From a virus, in the IMG/VR virus record IMGVR_UViG_3300017971_000201, positions 95,665-159,664 of that record: DNA of 64,000 nt. One strand, given 5' to 3'. A program made the position numbers and the translations under genes. The notes beneath the pieces were generated by a model. The model worked only from the letters and a program-made list of their open reading frames with translations, was not told the DNA's origin and ran no database searches. How positions within the stretch are numbered: position 1 is the stretch's first letter; every line of letters starts with the position of its first letter. This document shows positions 974 through 57,314 of the stretch, in pieces.

Positions 974-2938
974 GTGGGAGCAGCGCGAAGACGAAACCCC
1001 AAGGTAGCCGCAGCCAGGAAAGGGAAGCCGCCGCCCAAGGCCACCGGCAACTGCCGGAACTACAGGTACGGCGCGCACGAGCCGATCGCCAATCTGGACA
1101 AGGTGCTCGATGAGATGCGCGGTGCTCACGACCTGCGCAACGTGCTGACGTGCATCAACCGAGCCCGAAGCGAGATGATCACGGCCGCGCTCGGCGAGCA
1201 CCAGTCGTACAAGAAAGCCACTGCTGATCTGGCGGCTCTGCACCAGCGGCGCGACAAACTGGAGGCGCAGATCCGGCAACAGAACAGCGCCAGCCGCAAA
1301 CGGCTGGGGCGACACTCCCCGCTGTCTTCGGAACTCGACACCGTTCGCAAGAGGATCGACGAGGGCAGGACCGCTCTCAAGAAACTCCGCAGGAAGCTCC
1401 TCAAGAAAGACCCCGCGCTGAAAGCGGTTGTCGAGGCCGCTGACGACATGGCGAAGAGGGAGACGACTCGCGCGGAAGATGCCTGCGGGCTCTACTGGTG
1501 CACCCGAAACGAGCAGACCGGCAAACGCGCCAAGCTGCGCCGCTTCAAGAAGTGGCGCGACAGCGAAGCGACCATCAGCGTTCAGATCCCAGGGGGGTTG
1601 ACCGTTGAGCAGCTGCTTGGCGGCGAGAACAACCAAGCGCGCCTGGAGCTGCGCCCGGAAGGCGTATGGGTCCAGGGGGCGAGGAAGCGCAAGGTCGAGC
1701 CGGCCGAGGCCGCGAGGAACAAACTCAGACTCGACGAAGACGGCTACCCCATGCGCAAGCTGGGGACCGCCATCCTGCATCTCCGGTGCATGTCAGACGA
1801 GGACGGCAAGCCGATTTGGGCCGAGGTGCCGATCACCTACCATCGCGAGATCCCCGCCGATGCCAAGATCAAGCGGTGCTACTTGCACCGATTCCGGGTC
1901 GGCAACCGCTACCACTGGTCTGTACGCTTCTCGCTGGAGCGGGGGAAGAAAGGCGACGACTCCTGGCTGCACCCGCGCGTCGCCACGACCGGCACGGCCG
2001 CGATCGACATCGGCTGGCGATGGTTCCCCGATCGCCTACGCGTCGCCGTGTGGGCCGGATCGGACGGAGCCGAGGGCGAGCTGTGCTTGCCCAAGTGGTG
2101 GCTGGACGAGATGTACTCCGTCCGGCTCGACCAGCGGGAGCGCGACGTGCTGTTCAACGAGATCGTATCCCTGGTCCTGCCGTGGTTCCGATCGCGGCGC
2201 GGGGAGCTGTCCGACTACGTCGTACAGGCGATCAAGACGATGCACTCGTGGCGCGACAAGGGAAGGCTGGCCGCGCTCTCCATGCGCTGGCGCGATGATC
2301 TGGCCGCCGATCCGGGCGCCAACCCGGCTCACGTCGCCATGTCCATCCGCCTGGAGGAGTGGCGTAAGCGCGACAAGCACATCTGGTGCGAGGAGGTGAA
2401 CCTCCGCAGCCAGCTCCAGGGCTCGCGCAAGGATCTCTACCGGCGATTTGCCGCGATGCTCACCAGCCGCTACGGCCGAATCGTGGTCGAGGAGTTTGAC
2501 CTGAGTGCGGTCCAGAAGCTCCCGCCGGCCTCGATCGATGACGGCACCTACTCCAGGGTCAAGAGGCACAAGGGAGACGCGGCGTGCTCGCACCTGGTCG
2601 GCGCGCTCAAGGATGCGGCGCGGCAGCTGGACAAGAAGAACCCGAAGTGGACGACCAAGCGGTGCCACGTCTGCGGGAAGACCGAGAGGAAGTGGGAGAA
2701 CCCCGGTGAGCTGGAGCACACGTGCAAGCACTGCGGAGTGCTCTGGGATCGGGACGTGAACGCGGCCCGGAACATTCTCGCCGCGAGCGGCGTGGCGGTT
2801 GACTGGACCCGGCCACCGCTCGCGCCAGCCGCCCGAATGACTTATCCACAGGTAGAGAACCGCGAGATGCGTCGATCGCGGCGCAGGAAGGAGGCGCTCG
2901 AAACGACGCGTGCAAGCGGTGATCGACAGACGGCTTAG
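974..2938 (+). CDS. cas12: type V CRISPR effector, Cas12m (V-U1)-like, RuvC triad intact
   Basis: 654 aa; RuvC-I AIDIGWR (D345), RuvC-II IVVEE (E506), Zn finger CHVC..CKHC, RuvC-III DRDVNAA (D594); N-terminal motifs GLYW, ISVQI, VPITYHREIPADA, KDLYRRFA recall Cas12m; array begins 10 nt after stop. Confidence 0.85.
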   Translation: MGAARRRNPKVAAARKGKPPPKATGNCRNYRYGAHEPIANLDKVLDEMRGAHDLRNVLTCINRARSEMITAALGEHQSYKKATADLAALHQRRDKLEAQIRQQNSASRKRLGRHSPLSSELDTVRKRIDEGRTALKKLRRKLLKKDPALKAVVEAADDMAKRETTRAEDACGLYWCTRNEQTGKRAKLRRFKKWRDSEATISVQIPGGLTVEQLLGGENNQARLELRPEGVWVQGARKRKVEPAEAARNKLRLDEDGYPMRKLGTAILHLRCMSDEDGKPIWAEVPITYHREIPADAKIKRCYLHRFRVGNRYHWSVRFSLERGKKGDDSWLHPRVATTGTAAIDIGWRWFPDRLRVAVWAGSDGAEGELCLPKWWLDEMYSVRLDQRERDVLFNEIVSLVLPWFRSRRGELSDYVVQAIKTMHSWRDKGRLAALSMRWRDDLAADPGANPAHVAMSIRLEEWRKRDKHIWCEEVNLRSQLQGSRKDLYRRFAAMLTSRYGRIVVEEFDLSAVQKLPPASIDDGTYSRVKRHKGDAACSHLVGALKDAARQLDKKNPKWTTKRCHVCGKTERKWENPGELEHTCKHCGVLWDRDVNAARNILAASGVAVDWTRPPLAPAARMTYPQVENREMRRSRRRKEALETTRASGDRQTA

Positions 2939-3469: not shown

Positions 3470-4903
3470 CTAGAGCAAATTGTCCACTTCCACGCGCGCG
3501 AAGAACTCCGCCCGGGTGAGCGTGATCTTGTGGCGCGTACGGACCGCGCGACGGAGGCTCAGGTCATTCGGGTCGATGAAGTTCGGGGTGATCTCCATCG
3601 GGATGTACGGGCTGTAGATGAGCCCGGTGTCGAGGATGCTCGGCCCCTGGTATCCCATGAGGATCTGGTTGGCCGGGAAGAGCGGATCGACGAAGATCAG
3701 CCACTTCCTCTTGAGCACGCCCTGCTTGAGGATCCCGCCCTGGTAGACGTGACCCTCCTCGACGGCCGAGAAGCCATCGATGTTGTCGAGGAGGCTGGCG
3801 ACCTCCGACGACGTGATCGCCCAGTTGCAGGGCGCCCGCTGCGTGCGACGGTGCACGATGTGGGAGGCGCGGGACATGCGGATCACGAGCGACTTGAGGT
3901 GCTCGGGATCGCTGACGCCCGAGGGCGTCGCCCGGTCCCACTTGACGACGGCGATCGGCTCGACGGCGTTGAGCGCGGTACCCGCGATCTCGCGGTCGAT
4001 CTCCGCCACCATCTCGTCGGACATCTGCGCGACCAGGTCGGCGTCGATGTCGCGACCCCACAGCGCGCGGAGGTCGTCCGCCGCCTCGACGCTGGCGAGG
4101 CTCTTGAGCTTGCGGCTCTCGGCCTCGATGCTCTTGATCTGGATGTCCAGCTGGACCTCCGGGATCCGAGCGTTCAGCTCGTTGTCGTAGCGGTACTCGA
4201 CCGTGATGACGTCACCGGACGCCGGCGCGGTGCCGAACGTGAGCGACATCTGGCCCGACGCGTAGTTGACCGTGCCAGCGCCGCCGGCCATCAGCGTGCC
4301 GGCGACGACGGTGAACGCGCCCGCGCCGTTGTCGGTCGCGTTGACGGTACCGTTCACCTTCACGACGACGGTGGCCTGCCGGGGGCGGGGCCACGCGAGG
4401 TTGCGGGAGAAGACGACCGTGCCGCCGTCGCCGGTCCCGAACGGCTCGCCGTCCACGAAGTTGGAGCTGTACCACTTGTTCAGCACCTTGTTCATCTCGG
4501 TCATGGCGGCGACGGAACCCTTGTCCGACGCGTACCGTGGCCGGTAGAACGCGATGCCGCCGATCGGGCCGGTCATCGGCTGGACCGACGCGATCTGCGT
4601 CGCGACCAGGCGGATGGCGGTCCTGCGGATGACGGGCAGGACGTACTTCATGAACGGCCCGACCGAGAGAGCGCGAGTCTCCTCGTTGAGCCGCTTGAGG
4701 TGACGAACCTCCTGCTCGATCATCAGGGCCGTCAGACCCCGCACGTAGTTGACGTGGGCCGGCGCGTAGCCCGGACCCATCTCCTCGTTGAGACCCCGGA
4801 GCATCTTGTGCCACTTGCGCACGTACCGGCTGACGGCCGGCTCGTCCGCGATGGCAGTCGACTCTCCGAGGTTCTCGGCTAACAGTCCTCGAGCCGTGAA
4901 CAT
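3470..4903 (-). CDS. major capsid protein, T4 gp23-like
   Basis: VQPMTGPIGGIAFYRPRY, AESRKLK, AEIDREI, GYQGPSILDTGLIYSPYIP motifs. Confidence 0.95.
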   Translation of the reverse strand: MFTARGLLAENLGESTAIADEPAVSRYVRKWHKMLRGLNEEMGPGYAPAHVNYVRGLTALMIEQEVRHLKRLNEETRALSVGPFMKYVLPVIRRTAIRLVATQIASVQPMTGPIGGIAFYRPRYASDKGSVAAMTEMNKVLNKWYSSNFVDGEPFGTGDGGTVVFSRNLAWPRPRQATVVVKVNGTVNATDNGAGAFTVVAGTLMAGGAGTVNYASGQMSLTFGTAPASGDVITVEYRYDNELNARIPEVQLDIQIKSIEAESRKLKSLASVEAADDLRALWGRDIDADLVAQMSDEMVAEIDREIAGTALNAVEPIAVVKWDRATPSGVSDPEHLKSLVIRMSRASHIVHRRTQRAPCNWAITSSEVASLLDNIDGFSAVEEGHVYQGGILKQGVLKRKWLIFVDPLFPANQILMGYQGPSILDTGLIYSPYIPMEITPNFIDPNDLSLRRAVRTRHKITLTRAEFFARVEVDNLL

Positions 4904-9959: not shown

Positions 9960-12900
9960 CTACTGACCGTGGAATCTTCGGGTCATCGCGAGCAGCTCCT
10001 TCCGGGAGAACTTCCCGGATGGCGGAGCGGACATGCTGCCGCCGTTGGTTCGGCGCAGCAGGCCACGGACCTCCTCGAAGAACGCGCGCCGCTCGTGCTC
10101 GCGCCTGGCGAAGCCTTTGTCGCCCTCCAACAGACGATTGAGCTTGTCCGAGATCTCGGAGTGCCGGCGGCTCGACTCCCTGTACTTCCATTCCTCGAGA
10201 CGTCGCTCGTAGTCGTAGCGCTTCCACTCCTCTGGCGTCGGTTTCTTCCCCTTGCCGACCGCCGGGGCCTTGGGCTTGGGCGACGGCTTGGGCGCCGGCT
10301 TAGGGGTTCCCTCCTCCTCCTCCGGCGGCGCTTTCTCTGGCGCCTCCTCCGGCGGAGCCTCCTCCGGCTCTTCCTCCCCGCCCGGCGGCGGGGCCTCTGG
10401 CGGCCCGCCCTGGCCGCCGCCCATCGCGTAGCTGGGCAGATCGCCGGCCTGCTCCTCCTCGGAGTCCTTCTTCTGTTGCTTCTCGATCTCCTTGATCTCC
10501 TCCTCGGAGAACTTGAGGATGTTCTCCTGGATCCAGCGGGTGCTCACCCACGGCTGAATCCGGCTCGCGTAGTCAGCTGCCGCGTTCATGGTCTCGTAGG
10601 CCGCCAGCTCCCAGATCCCCGAGGGCACGGTCATCTCGATCGTGAACTCGGGCTTCCAGGGATCGCGCACGCCGCGAGCGGCCAGGTGCGTGCGAATGAC
10701 CCTCTCCCAGCCGATCTTCAGCTCGCGCTGGAGATTCAGGGTCACCCGGGCCGCGCGAACGTCGTCGTTCGACAGAATCGACTTCGACGGCGGGGCCTCG
10801 TCCTTGCCCAGGTAGGCGCGCGGGACCTTCAGTGTCGCGTGGAGCATCTGCTTGAAGTACTCGACATCATCGACGGCCTGGTAGTCCGGGCCGGAGAGGA
10901 CGTCCACCCTGGCCAGCTCGCGGCCCTCGCGAACGGCGATGAAGAAGTCCTCGTCACGGGCGAGAGGGTTGTAGCGGAGATCCAGCCGGCCGGATCGGGG
11001 GTTGACCATCCGCTTCTTCTTGAGGTCCCGCTTCGCCTTCTGAAGGAATGCGCCGACCTGGTCGGACGGGATGTCGGTCGTGTCGATGTAGTAGGCGTAA
11101 CGAGCTGGCGCGCGCGTGTTGTGCACCACGCACCCGTCCGCGACGAAGTTGTGCTCGTCGGCCTCGACACCGATGTCATAGATGTCATCTGTCTCGATTT
11201 CCTCGACGCCGCGAATCACCTCTGTCTTCGCCTGGGGCTTGAAGGAGACGTCCAAGCAATAGGACGTGCTGGTCGGAAGCGGCTTGCTGGAGCCTTTGAT
11301 CGTTCGACCGCCCGCTCGCGTACGAGACCAAACGAAGGTGGCGACCAGCCCGAGTTGCATGGCCAGCTCGCGCACATCCTCCAACAGCTGCTTGTTGCAC
11401 ATCTCGAAGCGAGCGCGCTCGTAGCGCGTCTTCCTTCCCTCCTTGCGGGGCTTGATGTGTGCGTCCGCGTCGGCAAGCCCTCGGATCATGGCCAGCTTGA
11501 GCTTGGGATGCGCTCGGAAGATCCACTCCGGCAGACGCTTGTGGTGGGCGCCGGGGACGAACCCGTTGAGCGTCATGAACTCAGCGAACTTGCCGGAAAC
11601 GATCGTGTAGGCGCCTAGCCGGTGGCCGGTATCGCCGACCAGCTTGACTGGCGCATATTTCTCGAAGAGAGCCTTGTACTGCTCGTTGATGTCCTGGTGC
11701 GCCCCAAGCGCGAACCCGGTCTCGTTCTGAGCAACGTGAGCCTCAGAGTGACCTGGGCGCAGCTTATGAGTGCGGGTGGCGACGAACCCGTCCCCGAGCA
11801 TGAACCCCCACCACCGCGCGAAATCCGCGTCGGCGGTTTCCGGGACCGTGATCCCTGTAACAGGAGTGCCGCGCTCACCGCCCCAGTGCTCCTCGATCTC
11901 CAGATGCTCTGGGCCGTGACCGTTGGCTTCCAGCAACGCTACGGCAGTATCGGTCTTGAGGTCATAGTCGCCGGCGAAGAAGTCGCGTGCCCGGCAGTGA
12001 TGCACACCGACCTGCTTCGCAATCTTGGGGTAGGGCATGGTCCGCTCGACAGCCCCGACGAGTCGCGCCTTGCTGTGGAGCTGCGGCCTTTCGAGGTAGA
12101 TCTCCTCCCAGTCGTCTTCGTTCTTGGAAGGGGTGACGAACCTGTGCACGCCAGGCTCAAGGTTCTGGACCTCCACGTAGTCCAGCCGGCGGATCTGGGG
12201 AATACCCTTGCCCCGGCCGACAACCGTCTCGACCAGAACAGGGTGCGTCCTGTTGGCGAAGATCTCCCTGTGGTCGCTGAAGACGCGGAAGATCTTGTCC
12301 TGGCCGTTGTGCTTCTTGTAGACGACCTTCGTCTTCTTCAGCCGGTGATCGTTGCCCGGATCGGTGTAGGAGTAGACCTCATCTCCCTCCTGTAGATCCT
12401 TGATTGCCTTACGGCCGTCTGGCGTCCAGATCTGAGAGTCTCCGCGCAAGCAGAGCTTGTAGATCAAGACCGAGTCCTCGAGCATCACCAGCCGCTTCCA
12501 GATCCAGCGAGCGCCCTCAGCGACCGAGACGCCGTAAGGCGACCGCCGCCGCGTCGCGCGCAGGCGGAAGTGGGCAACCTGCCAGTCCTCGAACAGGGCG
12601 AGACTCCTGGGGATCTCGACGTTGCCGGCGAGCATCCGCCGCAGCTCTTGGCTGTTCGCGGTGAACTGGCCGGTGACGTCCTGCACGAAGCCGATCAGAC
12701 CGCCGTCCAGACGCTCGACCCGGCGCATCGTGGGAACCGGGAGCGTATTGGTCCCGACGATCCCGTTCTCGGTAATGAGCAGCTCGAGGTAGTCGTTGCC
12801 CATCATCCCGAGGCCGTAAGCCTGTGGCCAGATCTCGTCCTCGACCCGCAGGATCCGGTGCATCAGGTCATTGCCCAGGCCCTTGAGAGCGTCGTCCTCC

Positions 12901-13202
12901 GACATGACCCAGATGCAGCGGCCGTCCTTGACCGAAGGCTGGGTCGCGTCGTTGGCAAAGTAGTGGAAGGCGCTGTTGATGTCCGGGTACTCCTCCATCG
13001 CCTCGTAGTCGGCAAACCGATCCATGAGCGACTGGGAGACGGTGAGCAGACCGCCGATGTCCTCGCGCCCCCAGACCGTGAACATGCTCGGCACGTGGTG
13101 ACGCATCGCCGCGACAGACGGAGAGTCGGCCTTGGCCCGCTCCTCCTGTGGAGCGCCGAATACGTTTCGGAGCGCCTTGACCGCCCTATCACGGAGGGCC
13201 AT
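9960..13202 (-). CDS. portal protein (T4 gp20-like) with intein
   Basis: LEDSVLIYKL/TRAPARYAYYID (gp20 EDA.VIYRITRAP motif split by intein), EDFFIA, DDVEYF, LKVPRAYL. Confidence 0.93.
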   Translation of the reverse strand: MALRDRAVKALRNVFGAPQEERAKADSPSVAAMRHHVPSMFTVWGREDIGGLLTVSQSLMDRFADYEAMEEYPDINSAFHYFANDATQPSVKDGRCIWVMSEDDALKGLGNDLMHRILRVEDEIWPQAYGLGMMGNDYLELLITENGIVGTNTLPVPTMRRVERLDGGLIGFVQDVTGQFTANSQELRRMLAGNVEIPRSLALFEDWQVAHFRLRATRRRSPYGVSVAEGARWIWKRLVMLEDSVLIYKLCLRGDSQIWTPDGRKAIKDLQEGDEVYSYTDPGNDHRLKKTKVVYKKHNGQDKIFRVFSDHREIFANRTHPVLVETVVGRGKGIPQIRRLDYVEVQNLEPGVHRFVTPSKNEDDWEEIYLERPQLHSKARLVGAVERTMPYPKIAKQVGVHHCRARDFFAGDYDLKTDTAVALLEANGHGPEHLEIEEHWGGERGTPVTGITVPETADADFARWWGFMLGDGFVATRTHKLRPGHSEAHVAQNETGFALGAHQDINEQYKALFEKYAPVKLVGDTGHRLGAYTIVSGKFAEFMTLNGFVPGAHHKRLPEWIFRAHPKLKLAMIRGLADADAHIKPRKEGRKTRYERARFEMCNKQLLEDVRELAMQLGLVATFVWSRTRAGGRTIKGSSKPLPTSTSYCLDVSFKPQAKTEVIRGVEEIETDDIYDIGVEADEHNFVADGCVVHNTRAPARYAYYIDTTDIPSDQVGAFLQKAKRDLKKKRMVNPRSGRLDLRYNPLARDEDFFIAVREGRELARVDVLSGPDYQAVDDVEYFKQMLHATLKVPRAYLGKDEAPPSKSILSNDDVRAARVTLNLQRELKIGWERVIRTHLAARGVRDPWKPEFTIEMTVPSGIWELAAYETMNAAADYASRIQPWVSTRWIQENILKFSEEEIKEIEKQQKKDSEEEQAGDLPSYAMGGGQGGPPEAPPPGGEEEPEEAPPEEAPEKAPPEEEEGTPKPAPKPSPKPKAPAVGKGKKPTPEEWKRYDYERRLEEWKYRESSRRHSEISDKLNRLLEGDKGFARREHERRAFFEEVRGLLRRTNGGSMSAPPSGKFSRKELLAMTRRFHGQ
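11118..12452 (-). mobile_element. intein with LAGLIDADG homing endonuclease in the portal (445 aa)
   Basis: Starts CLRGDSQIWTPDG, ends NFVADGCVVHN with +1 Thr; WGFMLGDG and MIRGLADADA motifs. Confidence 0.93.
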
Positions 13203-13923
13203 CTAGTTCTCCAGTCTCGTCGCCGACGTCCAGGAAGATCTCGGTCGCCGAAACGCTCGAGCAGTCTTGCGGCAGGACGTCATATACATCTTCCTCTTCG
13301 ATCCATGGCTCGCAACCGGCAACCTTGTGATTGCCAGGCATGATCTGTCGCTGGAGATCGAGAAGTCGATGCAGTTTGCTCCGGTTCCCCTTCCGTGGGG
13401 TACCGTCGATGTAGAGGTTGTCCGGGTGGCAGTTGTCAGGGTTGCCGTCCTTATGCTTCACCCGAAGCCCAGGAACGAGGGCATCGCCGGAGGCCCATTC
13501 ATACACCATTCTGGCGACGCTCCGCCATCTTTTCCGGTCGCTCGCGCAAGCCGCGTGCTTCCAGTGATCGGTCACCTGCCTGAAGGTCGGGTAGCCGCCC
13601 TGCTTGATACGACCGAGGTAGAGCGGAACCAGGCTCGTGCACGGCTTGAGATCGGCCGCCCGAACGGTCTCGACTCTCCTCGGCTCCCAGTTGGTGAACA
13701 CCAGGAAGCGCTGGTCGGCGCTGACCCGCAAGCTGCGGCCGTTGTCGAGAACGACGCGGTATGTCTGTGCGCGGGTGGGCGTGTGCGGAATGTAGACCCG
13801 GCCAGCGGCGATCTTCGCACCGTTCCAGGAGAAGACGTAGACGGGCTCGTCGGCGTTAGCGATGCGGACGGCGGTCTGGGGACCGCTCATGGTGTGGATG
13901 ATCGTGTCGCCGGCGATACTCAC
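13189..13923 (-). CDS. free-standing degenerate Hint-domain protein with inserted HNH-like segment
   Basis: GTG start overlapping upstream stop, GAGGAGG RBS; SIAGDTII (block A), LDNGRSLRVSADQRF (block B), VRAADLK, VYDV (block F); KHKDGNPDNCHPDNL; no terminal HN. Confidence 0.75.
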   Translation of the reverse strand: MSIAGDTIIHTMSGPQTAVRIANADEPVYVFSWNGAKIAAGRVYIPHTPTRAQTYRVVLDNGRSLRVSADQRFLVFTNWEPRRVETVRAADLKPCTSLVPLYLGRIKQGGYPTFRQVTDHWKHAACASDRKRWRSVARMVYEWASGDALVPGLRVKHKDGNPDNCHPDNLYIDGTPRKGNRSKLHRLLDLQRQIMPGNHKVAGCEPWIEEEDVYDVLPQDCSSVSATEIFLDVGDETGELDGPP

Positions 13924-14405
13924 TGCGCCTCCTCGTCTGCCGAGACGACAACTCCCTCGCAAACGAGGTTATGCGCATCGGTGGCGACGTGAAAGACTCG
14001 CGCTCTGCCAGCTGGAATGGGGTCGCCCGCAACCATCACGTGACCGGTCGAGAAGGCTGTGAGCATGAACTGGTCGGAAACGCCAGTACCGGCGGAGGGG
14101 CTGACGATCTTGTCACCTTCCTTCAGGTCACGGGCCTCGGCGTAGCCGACCGTCGTGAGCACCTTGTACTCCGGCGTGCAGCGGATCTTGCGGAGGTTGG
14201 AGAGCAGCACCTCGACGACCTCGACCTCACCGGTCAGGCGGGGGTGCTGAGCCGCGACCTTGACGATCCGCCTCTTCTTCGTGTCGTAGGCGAGGATCTG
14301 CGGCTGCTCTCCCGTTTGCGCGAGCCTCTCGATCGGGGTCCGCGAGATGATCGAACCGTCGGCCGTGTAGATGAGAACGCCTTCAGCCAGACCCCGCTGA
14401 TTCAC
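13920..14405 (-). CDS. free-standing catalytically dead mini-Hint protein
   Basis: GLAEGVLIYTADG, IRCTPEYKVLT..GYAEARDLKEGDKI, VFHVATDAHNLVCEGVVVSA; C1, block-B His and terminal HN all replaced. Confidence 0.8.
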   Translation of the reverse strand: MNQRGLAEGVLIYTADGSIISRTPIERLAQTGEQPQILAYDTKKRRIVKVAAQHPRLTGEVEVVEVLLSNLRKIRCTPEYKVLTTVGYAEARDLKEGDKIVSPSAGTGVSDQFMLTAFSTGHVMVAGDPIPAGRARVFHVATDAHNLVCEGVVVSADEEAQ

Positions 14406-40736: not shown

Positions 40737-40979
40737 TTAGCCGAGATCGGCGGCCAGTTCTCCGAGCCGCTCGACGACGCTGATTGGCCCTATGCGCGGG
40801 CCGGCATTGAGCTTGTGCATCCGCTGCGACCGCTCAGATGAGTCCTGGCTCACGAGCACGCACGGCCGGCCACCCTCCCAGCCGATCGACCGCACGGTCC
40901 CCCTCACCGGACCCTCCTCATCGGCCAGGCGCAGCCACACGTGGTCGCCGATGTCGTATGGGTGACGGTTCCAGATCAC
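40737..40979 (-). CDS. SH3-like small protein with tag
   Basis: YDIGDHVWL...SVVERLGELA. Confidence 0.6.
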   Translation of the reverse strand: MIWNRHPYDIGDHVWLRLADEEGPVRGTVRSIGWEGGRPCVLVSQDSSERSQRMHKLNAGPRIGPISVVERLGELAADLG

Positions 40980-41230
40980 CGAGTCAGGTCCCCCAACCGC
41001 TCCACGGCCGGCACCGGGAGCACGTGTTGCGAGGGGATTTCCTTGAGCAGTCCTCGTAACCGACCGCCATTGTCCGTGAAGAGCACGTCGTAGCACACGC
41101 GCCCGGTCTTGTGATTCACCCGAACGTGGCAGACACGGCCGCGCGCTCGGAGGCCGACATTCGGCACGTAGTGGATGACATCGTCGCCGACCTCGAACTC
41201 GACCTCGAACCCGGGCTCCTCGTCGCTCAC
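40976..41230 (-). CDS. SH3-like small protein with tag
   Basis: FEVGDDVIHY...PAVERLGDL. Confidence 0.65.
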   Translation of the reverse strand: MSDEEPGFEVEFEVGDDVIHYVPNVGLRARGRVCHVRVNHKTGRVCYDVLFTDNGGRLRGLLKEIPSQHVLPVPAVERLGDLTR

Positions 41231-41781
41231 AGCAGGATCCAGTCGCTCGGGAAGCCGTAGTCCTCGGGGCGCGGGCGCGGCTCTTTTTCTGATGGCGCCC
41301 TTTTCTGCGCATCTGAGCGCCCCTCGGCTGCCTTATCCGGCGGGAGATAGAGCACTTCCCGCTTGGAGAACTCCCGGAACGCCGCGAACGGGTCGTCAGC
41401 GCTGACCTCGGGCTTGCGTTCCTCCTCGAGCATCAGCTCGCGCTCGCGCCGGATTGTGCCCCAGCCTTCCTCGATGATCCCCCGAAACAGACGCTCGAAG
41501 AGCGGCTGCTCTTCGGCCATCACGTGGGCCTTGATCACCTTCATGGCCTCGGTCAGCTGGGGAACGAAGCCGGAGCGCTTCAGCTCGCGGTAGCGCTTCC
41601 GGTCTGCCCGGCCGCCAAGAGGGGTCTCGCCGGCGATCTCGTCGATGATCCCGAGGCCGCGCAGCTCGTCGATCGCCCCCATCACCCACAGCGCGGTCTG
41701 GGGGTCGTAGGGCGCCGGGCTGCGGCCGAAGTCTCCGTAGCCGTCGTCGTAGCCGTGGCCGGGATAGAACTCAGGAGCCAT
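41227..41781 (-). CDS. hypothetical protein
   Basis: AGGAG RBS, coupled. Confidence 0.6.
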   Translation of the reverse strand: MAPEFYPGHGYDDGYGDFGRSPAPYDPQTALWVMGAIDELRGLGIIDEIAGETPLGGRADRKRYRELKRSGFVPQLTEAMKVIKAHVMAEEQPLFERLFRGIIEEGWGTIRRERELMLEEERKPEVSADDPFAAFREFSKREVLYLPPDKAAEGRSDAQKRAPSEKEPRPRPEDYGFPSDWILL

Positions 41782-42190
41782 CTCTGCTCTCCTCTTCCTC
41801 AACACGCGAGGCCACCGTCCCGAGCAGGTCTACCGCACTGATGTGCTCCTTGCAGTACTGATACTCGTTCAGGATCGCGGTTCGTCTGCACAGCCCTTCC
41901 CAGGTCTCCCCATCCGCGTAGTTGTTGATCGCCCTGTTGAGCACCATCGCGAACCCGTCCGTGTGCTTGACCGTGACGCGGACCGTCCCTTGTGTCTTGT
42001 TCTCAGCAACCTCGGCAAACTCGCACGCGATCTCCTCGAAGGCCGCGCTCTCAGGATCCTCGTCACAGAGATCACCGGCGGCCCAGTTGATCGCCTCGAT
42101 CATCTTCGCGGTGAACGTCAGCTTCCACTCGCCGCTCACGATCAGACCGGCGTCGATCCACGGCTTGTCGAACCCCTCGGTCTCGCTCAC
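41771..42190 (-). CDS. hypothetical protein with tag
   Basis: SAVDLLG. Confidence 0.6.
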   Translation of the reverse strand: MSETEGFDKPWIDAGLIVSGEWKLTFTAKMIEAINWAAGDLCDEDPESAAFEEIACEFAEVAENKTQGTVRVTVKHTDGFAMVLNRAINNYADGETWEGLCRRTAILNEYQYCKEHISAVDLLGTVASRVEEEESRDGS

Positions 42191-42441
42191 AGTGCCCCCA
42201 CGTCGATCTTGAAGCTGAACCGGACCGGCGCGAGCGTTAGCCTATTGACGATCTCGCGGTTCTTCCGCATCCGCTCGACGTGCTCATCCCACTCCCGAAC
42301 GCGGTGGGCCGCGCGCTTGTCAGCAACAGCCGCCAGGCGGTCGATCGCGGAAGGCTCGGTCGGCGCGCGGCGGAAGATGGCCTTGCTGAGGATCGACTCG
42401 CCGTACTGGTCCATCTCCGCGTAGTCGTCGTAGCGGTTCAT
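42187..42441 (-). CDS. portal N-terminal-like peptide fused to tag
   Basis: MNRYDDYAEMDQY vs portal MDRFADYEAMEEY; EPSAIDRLAAVA. Confidence 0.6.
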   Translation of the reverse strand: MNRYDDYAEMDQYGESILSKAIFRRAPTEPSAIDRLAAVADKRAAHRVREWDEHVERMRKNREIVNRLTLAPVRFSFKIDVGAL

Positions 42442-42566
42442 TCGACGCACCGTCCCAGCGCATCGACGGCCGAGGCCAGATCCATCTCGTCCAGCGGCAC
42501 CTCGATACCGTCCTGCGCCGGGCTGTTGCTGTAGGCGTAGTGGCGGAGGACGACGAAGACGGTCAC
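42438..42566 (-). CDS. 42-aa peptide with tag (not in ORF track)
   Basis: MTVFVVLRHYAYSNSPAQDGIEVPLDEMDLASAVDALGRCVE; overlaps both neighbours by 4 nt. Confidence 0.55.
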   Translation of the reverse strand: MTVFVVLRHYAYSNSPAQDGIEVPLDEMDLASAVDALGRCVE

Positions 42567-42793
42567 ACCAGCCCCGCCAGACGGTCGACGGCGCTCATGG
42601 TCTTACGGTACGCCTGCACCAGGTGAATAGCGGTGAGCTGACGCCGGTAGACGTCAACCGCGCTCGGGATGCCGAAGTTCTCTGCATGGTATAGCGAGCT
42701 GAACACGATCTCTTCTTCGTTGGCCAGCGCCCCATCACTCATGTGGCCGAGCCACGGCCAGCGGTCGATGAGGGCTTGGATCGACTGGCTCAC
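42563..42793 (-). CDS. hypothetical protein with tag
   Basis: Ends SAVDRLAGLV. Confidence 0.55.
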   Translation of the reverse strand: MSQSIQALIDRWPWLGHMSDGALANEEEIVFSSLYHAENFGIPSAVDVYRRQLTAIHLVQAYRKTMSAVDRLAGLV

Positions 42794-46726: not shown

Positions 46727-46948
46727 GTGCAGATCAGACTCGAGACCAGTCAGTTGGAGCAGGCGTTCGCCGAGTGCGACGACATCTACGTCTGGGTCGA
46801 CGACCTGTTCGGCGAGATGGGCGCCTACGTCCGCGTGGACAAGGAGCACTTCCTGGGCACCCTGAAGGCCGAGACCAAGAAGGGCTGGCGGCTCTACTAC
46901 GACGTCATCCTGAAGGGCGCCGACCTCTGGATCGGCGGCGGCGGATGA
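46727..46948 (+). CDS. hypothetical protein
   Basis: GGGTAGAAC and GGAGG upstream. Confidence 0.65.
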   Translation: MQIRLETSQLEQAFAECDDIYVWVDDLFGEMGAYVRVDKEHFLGTLKAETKKGWRLYYDVILKGADLWIGGGG

Positions 46949-47175
46949 AGCGCGGCGACCGGGTAGAGATCTTCGAGGGTCTCCCGAGCACACGCGGCCT
47001 GCGCGGGACGGTCTTCGGGGTCGGCCCCATGGGCACGTTCGTGAACATCCTGCCGGACCAGTGGGACCGGAAGCTGTGCGGCATCCCGATCGATCACGTT
47101 CGCGCGATCTCGGCCGTCGAGCAGCTCGGTGACCTGGCGCGCAGTAGCATCCGGCTGGGAGGGCAACCGTGCTGA
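46945..47175 (+). CDS. SH3-like small protein with tag
   Basis: MKRGDRVEI...SAVEQLGDLA. Confidence 0.65.
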   Translation: MKRGDRVEIFEGLPSTRGLRGTVFGVGPMGTFVNILPDQWDRKLCGIPIDHVRAISAVEQLGDLARSSIRLGGQPC

Positions 47176-48323: not shown

Positions 48324-48707
48324 TTACGCGCGGGCGCGCTCTTCCTTCTTATGAACCCCTTCCCGCGCAATTTTAGCCCCCAACGGATTGTCCACCGCCG
48401 GCCCCTCGAGCGGATCCCTGTAGACCCTCCACCGCTGATTGATCAGAGACCTCCACTCCCGCCACTCCCTCCACTCGCGCACGCGTCTGGCCGCCTCGCC
48501 CTCCGGGTCCGCGATGGCGGCGAGCTGATCGACCGCGCTCGGCTCCTCGAATCGGCGGGCGTGCCTGGACATGATGCTCTTGCGCAGGGAGAAGTCGTTC
48601 GGATCGACTGTGGTCGCGGGAACCTCGGGGATGTAGGGCGCGAAGATGTAGCCGGGGCTCAGTCCGGTCTCTCCATCGGCCGGTCGTCCGTTCTGGTCCG
48701 CGATCAC
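48324..48707 (-). CDS. major-capsid C-terminal-like peptide fused to tag
   Basis: GYIFAPYIP...VDPNDFSLRKSIMSRH vs MCP GLIYSPYIP...IDPNDLSLRRAVRTRH; EPSAVDQLAAIA. Confidence 0.75.
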   Translation of the reverse strand: MIADQNGRPADGETGLSPGYIFAPYIPEVPATTVDPNDFSLRKSIMSRHARRFEEPSAVDQLAAIADPEGEAARRVREWREWREWRSLINQRWRVYRDPLEGPAVDNPLGAKIAREGVHKKEERARA

Positions 48708-54888: not shown

Positions 54889-55131
54889 TCATTCGCCCGG
54901 CGGAGGCAGCCCCTCCTCGAAGAATTCCTCCAGCTCCCGCCGCCGCGCCTCGTAGACGGCCAGGCGGGCCGCGATCGTGAGGTCGGAGACGGCCGCCAGC
55001 CGCTCGATCGCCGAGGGCGTCTGGTACCCCTGCCGGGCCAGGTGAGCATCCACGGCGCGCGCGATCTTCTCCGCCCGCTCCTCCGGGGTCCGGGAGAACA
55101 TGGGGGCGGTGGGCGGCTGGCGCGTCTTCAT
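54889..55131 (-). CDS. hypothetical protein with tag
   Basis: PSAIERLAAVS. Confidence 0.55.
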   Translation of the reverse strand: MKTRQPPTAPMFSRTPEERAEKIARAVDAHLARQGYQTPSAIERLAAVSDLTIAARLAVYEARRRELEEFFEEGLPPPGE

Positions 55132-55706
55132 CGGCCGGCCGCCTTGTCGATCTCGCTCCTGAGCGTGCGGATCGCGCGCTCTCGGGCGGGGCCGCCGCCG
55201 TCCGCCTCGAAGAACTTGGTCAGCCCACTCACCAGGGCGTCGTACGCCTCGACCCGCTCCCGGGCCGCTGGGTCTGCCACGGCCGCGAGGCGCTCGACCG
55301 CGCTCGGGGGCTCGCCGCACTTCTGTCGGATGAGCTGCTTGGCGATCGGGCCGGCGTTCAGGACCGGGCCTGGCTCCCATGGCCGGCGTGGGTCCGGCGG
55401 GCCGATGAACAGGGGCGGTCGGTCAGCGCCGCCCCCGCTCATGTGCCCTTCCAGATCACGCCGGCGTCCTCGGGAAGCAGGTCGCCCAGCCGCGCGCTCG
55501 TGGATGGCCGCGAGGGCGTCGATCGCCGAAGCGGGCTCCAGCTCCCAGGCTTGCCGGATGAGGGGATCGGACCGGGTGAGGAGCCGCACCAACACCACCC
55601 CGGTCTCGTCGAGGTCGGGCCGCCACTCCCTCTCGTCTGAGATCACGAACCCGATCGTCCCGCACCGGGTTCGGACGGCCGCGCCACGTTGGAAGTGCTC
55701 GGTCAG
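55128..55706 (-). CDS. SH3-like protein with two tag copies (possible CTG start at 55706)
   Basis: SAIDALAAI and PSAVERLAAVA. Confidence 0.55.
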   Translation of the reverse strand: MTEHFQRGAAVRTRCGTIGFVISDEREWRPDLDETGVVLVRLLTRSDPLIRQAWELEPASAIDALAAIHERAAGRPASRGRRRDLEGHMSGGGADRPPLFIGPPDPRRPWEPGPVLNAGPIAKQLIRQKCGEPPSAVERLAAVADPAARERVEAYDALVSGLTKFFEADGGGPARERAIRTLRSEIDKAAGR

Positions 55707-55987: not shown

Positions 55988-56196
55988 GAGTCGCGCTCCT
56001 CGTGTAGCCTCGCCAGCTGGTCCACGGCCGGCTCGGGCTCCAGCCGCCACGTGTTGGTCACGAACCTGGCGCCATCATCGAGACAGACGAACCATCCCGA
56101 ACAGGTGGGGCGCGACGCGTCCGCCATGATCATGCCGGGCCGGCGCTTGCGCTTGCCGTACAGCTCCCGGTAGACGATCCGATCGCCGGGCTTCAT
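55984..56196 (-). CDS. SH3-like small protein with tag
   Basis: MKPGDRIVY...PAVDQLARL. Confidence 0.65.
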   Translation of the reverse strand: MKPGDRIVYRELYGKRKRRPGMIMADASRPTCSGWFVCLDDGARFVTNTWRLEPEPAVDQLARLHEERDS

Positions 56197-56450
56197 GGGC
56201 CGCTCCTCGCGATCTCGGCCAGCGCATCGACCGCCGACACCTCCCGCAGCTCGCTCTCGTAGAACCACTGGGCCTCGCCGCCGGTCAGCCGCCGCACCCA
56301 GGCCCACTTCTCGCCCGTGCCCTTCTCCCAGCCGCGATCCTCGGGCTCGTGGCCGACTCTCTCGATACGGACCAGGTTGCCGACGTAGCCGCGCACGCTC
56401 ATCGCGCTGGCGCGAACGACTCGGTAGACACGGCCCGGCTTGAGCTTCAT
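56193..56450 (-). CDS. SH3-like small protein with tag
   Basis: MKLKPGRVYRV...SAVDALAEIA. Confidence 0.65.
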   Translation of the reverse strand: MKLKPGRVYRVVRASAMSVRGYVGNLVRIERVGHEPEDRGWEKGTGEKWAWVRRLTGGEAQWFYESELREVSAVDALAEIARSGP

Positions 56451-56655
56451 GGCCACCCCGCGAACACGCGCTTGACGCAGTGGTAGCAGGTCGGCCGGCC
56501 TTCCGCCGTCTCGGTGATGCGCCACACGTGGCTGCACAGGGACAGCCGCCACGTGGGGTCGGCCCGGTCCTCCTCGGTGCCCTCCCGATCGTCGGGCGGC
56601 CGGATGATGTGCCAGACGGTGCTCGTGGGGCCGCGTCCGATCACATGGCCGCCGC

Positions 56656-57021
56656 TCACGACAGCTCTCCCAGGTCGGTCACCACGTCGCGCATGTCGGC
56701 CAGCTCGTCGATGATCCGGCGGGCGTGCTCCTTGGTGATCTCCTCGGCGGTCAGCTCCATGAGGCGCATCTGCGCGAGGGTGTACGCCTCGGGATGACGG
56801 GCCGCGACCCAGCTGAGGATCTCGGCCAGCGAGTCCCGGCCCCGGTTGACCGCGCCGATCGCGATCTTCGTCGCCTCGTCGAGGTCGGCAGGCACGGGCA
56901 CAGGGGGGCGCTTGACCCGCGCGACTAGGACCGCGTCCTCGGCCATGCGCACGACGAATGACAGGTTCACCACCGCATCGGCGAGCCGGTCTCGGTCCTC
57001 CTCGGTCGGCCGGCGGATCAC
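56656..57021 (-). CDS. hypothetical protein
   Basis: Coupled; ends DVVTDLGEL. Confidence 0.6.
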   Translation of the reverse strand: MIRRPTEEDRDRLADAVVNLSFVVRMAEDAVLVARVKRPPVPVPADLDEATKIAIGAVNRGRDSLAEILSWVAARHPEAYTLAQMRLMELTAEEITKEHARRIIDELADMRDVVTDLGELS

Positions 57022-57314
57022 GGCGACACCAGCCGGGCGAGCTGGTCCACGGCCGACAGTCCTTGGATCTCCCGCCGCACCACCTTGTAGGTCTCGTCGT
57101 CCCGGCCGTTGCGGGTGACCGACCAGCCGTACTGGTGCCAGTGCTCCCGCACCGCCCAGTGCTCGAGCTGGCAGGCTGGGTTCTGCTTGAGGGCCGCGAC
57201 CCGGGCCTCGACGAGCTTGCGGGCCGCCTCGTGGGCCTGCTCCTGGGTCGCCCAGATCTCCACGGTCTGGAGCACCTGGTTCTGGACGGTCCAGACGACA
57301 TCGGACCGCGTCAT
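57018..57314 (-). CDS. hypothetical protein with tag
   Basis: SAVDQLARLV. Confidence 0.65.
   Translation of the reverse strand: MTRSDVVWTVQNQVLQTVEIWATQEQAHEAARKLVEARVAALKQNPACQLEHWAVREHWHQYGWSVTRNGRDDETYKVVRREIQGLSAVDQLARLVSP

Follow-up and report, generated by a model that had tools for sequence, protein, structure and literature searches.

Eukaryotic microProteins and engineered dominant-negative fragments consist of an interaction piece of a larger protein and titrate partners; they act on the complexes of their own paralogues and carry no common tag. In T4, the internal proteins IPI-III and Alt bear an N-terminal capsid-targeting sequence, which the prohead protease cleaves at L/I-x-E. 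The phage mini-protein described here, g143, contains two pieces that resemble parts of the portal protein (referred to as bait A and bait B) and that flank a helical module with a short peptide tag. By comparison with microProteins, a library of baits from several core phage proteins is found here on one module, and in a virus. As with the T4 capsid-targeting sequence and the cargo-loading peptides of encapsulins, one short peptide occurs on many unrelated small proteins; unlike the T4 sequence, the tag is helical and is internal or C-terminal rather than N-terminal, and the module is a 29-aa two-helix unit between two baits from the same parent protein.

The Gol peptide of T4 gp23 (Lit protease, EF-Tu) is a short and highly conserved head-protein segment with activity as a free peptide, and the Gol region represents the most conserved part of gp23 (PMC3014915). 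Gol is part of the capsid protein, has no separate gene and switches a defence on, whereas in the phage analyzed here a sibling mini-protein carries a homologous capsid stretch and g143 itself has no capsid piece. We know of no portal equivalent of Gol.

Compared to the T4-type portal gp20 (PF07230; PDB 3JA7, 6UZC), g143 keeps the invariant residues of the family, i.e., D-Y..M in bait A and P.R...[YF].D in bait B, but it is 84 aa long while portals have approximately 520-630 aa, and its two pieces are joined by an unrelated helical module. Since wing, tunnel loop and crown are missing, as is most of the clip, g143 cannot form a channel. No published description of such mini-proteins was found in the literature. 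The architecture, with a common module between two pieces from one parent protein and an intein site spanned by one of these pieces, is unusual for a phage gene, and the design of portal pieces plus a shared helical module is real and under selection.

The g143 gene and its genome

The source of g143 is an uncultured giant T4-like phage, represented by a virus record of 159,664 bp with 65% GC; the whole stretch of DNA analyzed here, i.e., the last 64 kb of this record, is referred to as the window. This phage also encodes a head protease, 37 tRNAs and a tmRNA. A megablast search of 50,697 phage records did not find a near relative, and the capsid proteins of cultured phages are at most 32% identical to that of this phage. 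The closest relative, G001 (IMGVR_UViG_3300029258_002750), has 275,101 bp with direct terminal repeats, is complete according to CheckV and carries an intein-free portal (P0032, 100% identical) as well as a g143 orthologue that is 77-79% identical. Because this close relative is complete at 275 kb with terminal repeats, the record analyzed here may be only part of a jumbo genome. A 654-aa ORF adjoining the capsid gene (window 974-2938, plus strand) matches phage transposase families (phrog_506, E 1e-16). The genes that are relevant here are as follows (window coordinates).

42187-42441, minus strand: g143, gene for the 84-aa mini-protein, stop codon included (ORF list, coding GC pattern, orthologues, overlaps)
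42438-42566, minus strand: upstream gene, 42 aa, with a short tag at its end; its stop overlaps the g143 ATG (ATGA)
41771-42190, minus strand: downstream gene, 139 aa, with a short tag near its C-terminus; its GTG start overlaps the g143 TGA (GTGA)
9960-13202, minus strand: T4-type portal with a LAGLIDADG intein (Pfam Portal_T4, E 5e-44)
3470-4903, minus strand: gp23-type major capsid protein (phrog_138)

g143 was confirmed to be a real gene. Its GC content by codon position (0.65/0.42/0.89) follows the pattern of real genes in this phage (GC3 0.89), and the overlapping plus-strand ORFs show the reverse, antisense pattern. Its start and stop codons overlap with both neighbors, and g143 is therefore located inside a tightly coupled run of small minus-strand genes; this accessory run of small tagged genes lies far from the head module. 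Four orthologues of 84-88 aa were found in metagenomes, with 55-79% identity and the same gene neighborhood, and synteny is kept in the loci L001, L006 and L010. Searches of Pfam (at E 0.01) and the ESM Atlas gave no match for g143, Pfam found only DUFs in the neighboring genes, no Rfam RNA family was identified in the g143 region, and scans for promoters and terminators around the gene yielded nothing above chance.

Two segments resembling the portal protein

The two baits and the portal segments that they match are located as follows (window coordinates).

42361-42441, minus strand: bait A, g143 residues 1-27, resembling the first conserved T4-type portal motif (portal residues 60-88)
12939-13025, minus strand: portal segment matched by bait A, residues 60-88 (portal identified by Pfam Portal_T4)
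42190-42270, minus strand: bait B, g143 residues 58-84, resembling the end of the portal stem helix and the first clip strand, up to the clip tip
12453-12485, minus strand: end of the portal N-extein, residues 240-250, matched by the first half of bait B (sequence comparison)
11070-11117, minus strand: start of the portal C-extein, residues 696-711, matched by the second half of bait B (sequence comparison)

For the N-terminus of g143, the original prediction had quoted a portal match with 6 of 15 identical residues, which is exact and covers portal residues 60-74 (window 12981-13025). The portal was the best local match of bait A among the 187 called proteins, with a score that was reached by 5 of 2000 shuffles, and BLASTP of bait A gave an E value of 0.004 against the phage's own portal and of 6e-6 against P0140, a portal of another clade. 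When seven mini-proteins were compared to 15 intein-free portals at the profile-profile level, as had been proposed for the N-terminus, residues 1-26 aligned with portal residues 60-88 (hhalign probability 94-97%, E 1e-7 to 1e-10). In addition, the relative P0016 is more portal-like and bridges both families, as it has 56% identity with portal P0141 in a stretch of 34 aa (E 2e-9) and aligns with g143 over the full length with 47% identity. The portal-like N-terminus represents a conserved family motif rather than a chance similarity. No other part of g143 appears to be as constrained, and across the five orthologues bait A has 12 invariant positions among its first 15. Portals were not returned by an unbiased HMM search of 1.8 billion proteins, and the significance of the portal matches therefore rests on targeted comparisons. 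In the Pfam profile, the bait A motif is the very start of the Portal_T4 domain, and in an AF2 model of a related intein-free portal the stretch forms a helix-turn-helix (H52-69/H73-86, pLDDT approximately 85), which opens the portal wing domain.

Bait B represents a second match, additional to the N-terminal one. The LAGLIDADG intein of the portal comprises residues 251-695 and thus lies between the two halves matched by bait B, and the match, which runs across the intein site, holds only for the spliced portal. Smith-Waterman scores were 45 for the spliced portal, 34 for the unspliced portal and 29 for the next protein, with 0 of 2000 shuffles reaching 45, and comparison with residues 240-266 of the spliced portal gave an hhalign probability of 92.6% (E 4.5e-7). 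Portal_T4 homology was hence found at the level of segments, in bait A as well as in bait B, but not as a full fold, since the best orthologue scored 11.9 bits against a cut-off of 22.9 and matched profile positions 189-215 only; this Portal_T4 match was found in orthologue P0002.

HMMER aligned portal residues 237-474 with residues 263-514 of T4 gp20, and bait B therefore corresponds to gp20 266-292, a stretch in which, according to Sun et al. (2015; PMC4493910), stem helix alpha5 ends and the clip domain begins with its first strand. In T4, the first clip strand forms the only main-chain sheet between neighboring portal subunits, and N291 and M292 at the clip tip contact the packaging ATPase gp17 (PMC4493910). 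The AF2 portal model likewise has a helix (229-252) followed by a strand (256-262) at the bait B stretch. The two portal matches in g143 are colinear, independent and significant.

Both motifs resembled by g143 are intein insertion points in this portal family. Some other portals (among P0033, P0034 and G003:C1:5727-10454) carry an intein directly after motif A, and the 1591-aa portal frame of one relative aligns with an intein-free portal with three interruptions, which would fit three inteins.

Further analysis of the baits showed that they are closer to a distant portal clade (P0140-P0142), which is approximately 45% identical to the phage's own portal, than to the own portal itself. The Smith-Waterman scores of the two baits were 60 and 53 against the distant clade versus 39 and 40 against the own portal, and BLASTP of g143 against P0140 found two colinear matches (E 6e-6 and 1e-4). 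The states shared with the distant clade include an N at position 2, a YGE turn (YPD in the own clade) and a glycine (...VG..L) after the clip strand. Among the siblings of g143, two are foreign-like as g143 is, one shows the opposite and one is neutral; the bait of the sibling at genome positions 13995-14372 matches the own capsid protein far better than a foreign one. The foreign resemblance of g143 speaks against recent copying of the own gene as well as simple co-evolution with the portal of this phage, and a horizontal origin or the retention of ancestral residues could be another explanation. A 22-kb head region of a P0140-type phage contained no tags.

A module and tag shared with other small proteins

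The module of g143 and its siblings in the window are as follows.

42280-42360, minus strand: shared 29-aa module, g143 residues 28-54 (tag helix EPSAIDRLAAV, turn, start of the long helix); module HMM 53.6 bits
48324-48707, minus strand: sibling with a C-terminal fragment of the major capsid protein plus the module (blastp to MCP 420-458, E 6e-7; Pfam Gp23, E 0.0012; module 54.5 bits)
54889-55131, minus strand: sibling with the full module (module HMM 36.4 bits)
55128-55646, minus strand: sibling with one full module and one short tag (module HMM 31.9 and 9.9 bits)

The module was aligned with 28 relatives and is recognized in g143 with an i-Evalue of 1.5e-16 within the proteome. In an AF2 monomer model of g143, confidence is confined to the module helices at residues 32-37 and 42-69 (pLDDT approximately 85), and both baits are unfolded. 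The tail of g143 had been described as nearly the same as that of the gene at 48324, which agrees with the almost equal scores of the two for the 29-position HMM (53.6 and 54.5 bits); of the tails that were to be aligned with them, those at 54889 and 55128 are also matched by this HMM, and that at 55703 is matched in part. A full module is found in six small proteins of this phage, i.e., g143, 48324-48707, 54889-55131, 55128-55646 and the proteins at genome positions 13111-13362 and 13995-14372. Two of the module proteins carry clear capsid fragments (E 8e-10 and 6e-7; z 19 and 15), and in one further module protein the capsid match is weaker (z 4.1). Another small protein, the seventh, has 61 aa (genome 70349-70534, i.e., L005:150-335, minus strand) and combines a C-terminal portal piece with a short tag; its piece resembles residues 878-906 of the own portal (blastp E 0.002) and is matched better by P0140 and P0141. 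The predicted family in which pieces of virion proteins are fused to one common module is thus borne out by the capsid siblings and by the two portal pieces of g143, and g143 itself belongs to this family, as it has the 29-aa module and flanking core-protein pieces.

The tag helix motif, S-A-[VI]-[DE]-x-L-[AG]-x-[LVI], occurs 32 times in the 187 called proteins versus 0.66 expected from 300 shuffled proteomes (maximum 4), and in 17 of the 32 occurrences it is located within 13 residues of the C-terminus. With an HMM, the count of tag-bearing proteins, which are small and otherwise unrelated, rises to approximately 44. Tag carriers in the window include 40737-40979, 40976-41230, 41771-42190, 42438-42566, 42563-42793, 46945-47175, 56193-56456 and 57018-57314. 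The tag had been proposed to be shared by five genes; it is far more general, with approximately 40 proteins. Nucleotide identity of the tag falls from 0.71 at codon positions 1-2 to 0.39 at position 3, and its serine is encoded by both codon families. Because of the low identity at position 3 and the varied codons, the tag represents a peptide signal and not a DNA repeat.

Three other origins or roles were considered and rejected. A DNA-level repeat or homing-site decoy does not fit the diverse tag codons, and the identity of the bait DNA with the portal gene is only approximately 60%, with no codon position favored. Derivation of the tag from the C-terminal helix of the portal (residues 413-440) gave an hhalign probability of 0.4% and a score reached by 107 of 2000 shuffles, and the module HMM found no match to the capsid N-terminal propeptide as a source of the module. 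Outside the window, the tmRNA of this phage (G000:C1:27341-27689) encodes the tag peptide ANAPVRLAA, which has RLAA in common with the protein tag core, as well as a valine located two or three residues before it; this likeness may be due to chance or may hint that a protease or adaptor reads the tag.

A profile search of 1.8 billion representatives identified 27 proteins and, except for the orthologues and one ankyrin false positive, all of them share the module with other flanks. The following combinations were found.

P0016: bait A, module and bait B
P0014: bait A and module
P0009: bait B and module
P0007, P0008, P0015, P0018 and P0030: module and bait B, sometimes with a further hairpin
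P0012 and P0026: capsid Gol-region pieces and module
P0013 (199 aa): Hint-like fragment, module, bait B and a further hairpin

Given these varied flanks, the module carries short, conserved segments from a number of core proteins. In P0013, the first approximately 90 residues resemble, by eye, the N-terminal half of a Hint/intein domain without the first cysteine. The accessory region of the P0016 contig contains a Cpn10 co-chaperonin gene and a gene with an Acb2/Tad1 hairpin (anti-defence sponge), and another 106-aa ORF of this contig shows a weak Portal_T4 match. An IMG/VR relative (locus L014, G002:C1:96500-102300) has a tandem array of at least nine module mini-genes within approximately 5 kb, the baits of which include capsid pieces and a piece similar to motif B of DNA polymerase A; L014:1793-2035 weakly matches Pfam DNA_pol_A (E 0.022).

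Selection was compared between segments with dN/dS values calculated by the Nei-Gojobori method for the orthologues versus the window copy; the counts behind each value are small.

Bait A: 0.09 in the two closer pairs, 0.5 in the most distant pair
Tag: 0.1-0.24
8-residue linker: above 1
Helix: 0.2-1.5
Bait B: 0.4-1.1

For g143 overall, dN/dS was only 0.4-0.8. The 34 residues that are invariant among the orthologues are clustered in bait A, the tag and the end of bait B. These data support a pattern in which bait A and the tag would be the most constrained parts and the linker between them changes freely, but they do not decide the matter, as the counts per segment are small; the conservation of g143 in related phages points to a gene that is kept by selection.

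Possible roles of the portal pieces

The combination of bait and common handle suggests that g143 may act by molecular mimicry, a reading that we consider to have slightly less than an even chance of being correct. The portal pieces would engage whatever normally recognizes these motifs, and the module with its tag would couple g143 to a reader common to the approximately 40 tagged accessory proteins. A possible partner would be a neighboring portal subunit or a clip-docking partner, which could be capped in a dominant-negative manner, and an alternative partner would be a host factor that senses portal motifs, for which g143 could serve as a decoy. Of these two forms of mimicry, interference with portal assembly or docking is proposed only tentatively, and a host-sensor decoy is regarded as doubtful. 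The absence of folding of both baits in the AF2 model is as would be expected of pieces that fold on a partner. The predicted correspondence of bait B to the strand that zips subunits together and leads to the terminase-docking tip would be in favor of interference with assembly or docking, and the Gol-region bait of the sibling would be in favor of some immune link; the DNA polymerase A-type bait in the relative is not well explained by assembly poisoning. Both portal pieces are closer to the distant portal clade, and the target of g143 would therefore be non-self, such as a co-infecting relative or a host factor, with more likelihood than the phage's own portal. An aim at non-self does not appear to be general, because the bait at genome positions 13995-14372 favors the own capsid protein.

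A specific form of decoy, in which the portal pieces soak up a host STAND/Avs portal sensor without its oligomerization, is unlikely. As had been stated in the original prediction, portals are triggers of such sensors: Avs4 and Avs11 are triggered by portals, and the sensing of core proteins is broad (10.64898/2026.01.04.697583). This would fit with baits that represent motifs hard for a phage to mutate, with the homology between the bait at genome positions 13995-14372 and the Gol region of T4, which is known to trigger immunity as a short motif (PMC3014915), and with the Acb2/Tad1-like anti-defence gene that is located 3 kb away on the P0016 contig. However, Avs sensors are described as wrapping whole folds via broad interfaces, unlike the short-motif readers Lit and CapRel (2026 preprint, 10.64898/2026.01.04.697583). 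Sensors that read whole folds would hardly recognize a pair of linear pieces with 20-27 aa each, and such pieces would therefore be poor decoys for Avs. Moreover, the free Gol peptide activates Lit rather than blocking it, and the baits are more similar to a foreign portal than to the one that would need protection. To our knowledge, no portal sensor that reads a short motif has been reported.

Small phage chaperones for portals exist, as represented by T4 gp40, and g143 could similarly be a self-directed assembly factor that binds the phage's own portal, or the scaffold or terminase as partners of this portal, and times or chaperones ring formation or packaging. The likeness of bait B to the strand that zips neighboring subunits and leads to the terminase-docking tip would be compatible with this role, but the baits are less similar to the own portal than to a clade that is 45% identical to it, g143 is located in an accessory run and not near the head module, and relatives place baits of unrelated proteins on the same module. 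We therefore consider a self-directed factor unlikely.

Alternatively, the tag could be a signal for capsid or compartment targeting or for turnover (an analogue of the T4 capsid-targeting sequence or of encapsulin peptides, or a degron), with g143 as mere cargo and the portal-like pieces having no role as mimics. Both the position of the tag at 13 or fewer residues from the C-terminus in 17 of 32 occurrences and its presence on unrelated small proteins would be expected of such a signal, and the tmRNA peptide shares RLAA with the tag core. This similarity consists of only four residues, though, and the tag is internal in g143 and in the other full-module proteins. Furthermore, the baits, and not the tag alone, are under the strongest constraint, and the module HMM, used on phage proteins, did not match the capsid N-terminal region to the 29-aa module. 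A signal of this type is thus decidedly unlikely as the full explanation of g143.

Finally, although inteins are inserted in this portal family at the points to which both baits correspond, and although a Hint-like fragment precedes the module and bait B in P0013, it is highly improbable that g143 is functionless debris of a portal rearrangement around intein sites that stayed open by chance or translational coupling, since five orthologues, with identities as low as 55%, retain frame, length and 34 invariant residues, dN/dS of bait A and the tag is 0.09-0.24 (from small counts, and with 0.5 for bait A in the most distant pair) and the same architecture is found in the 47%-identical relative P0016.

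Taking molecular mimicry as the preferred reading, it is possible, although well short of probable, that these phages maintain libraries of bait-plus-handle proteins, which would display, on a common helical module, signature motifs of capsid, portal and polymerase that cannot be mutated, and which would either disarm host immunity based on pattern recognition or poison assembly in rival co-infecting phages. In such a library, g143 might, with no greater likelihood, be the portal member, with two motifs of a foreign-type portal on display, namely the clip strand that zips subunits together and the first motif of the wing. If mimicry is true, these mini-proteins would represent a natural modular system of peptide decoys or dominant-negative inhibitors that are made from non-mutable core parts, and would thus constitute a new class of counter-defence or inter-phage weapon. 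Mimicry, if true, would also pinpoint motifs of the portal and capsid proteins that are important for recognition or assembly. Lastly, the presence of the tag on approximately 40 proteins implies a common reader, which would be a hub for the accessory proteins of these abundant uncultured phages.
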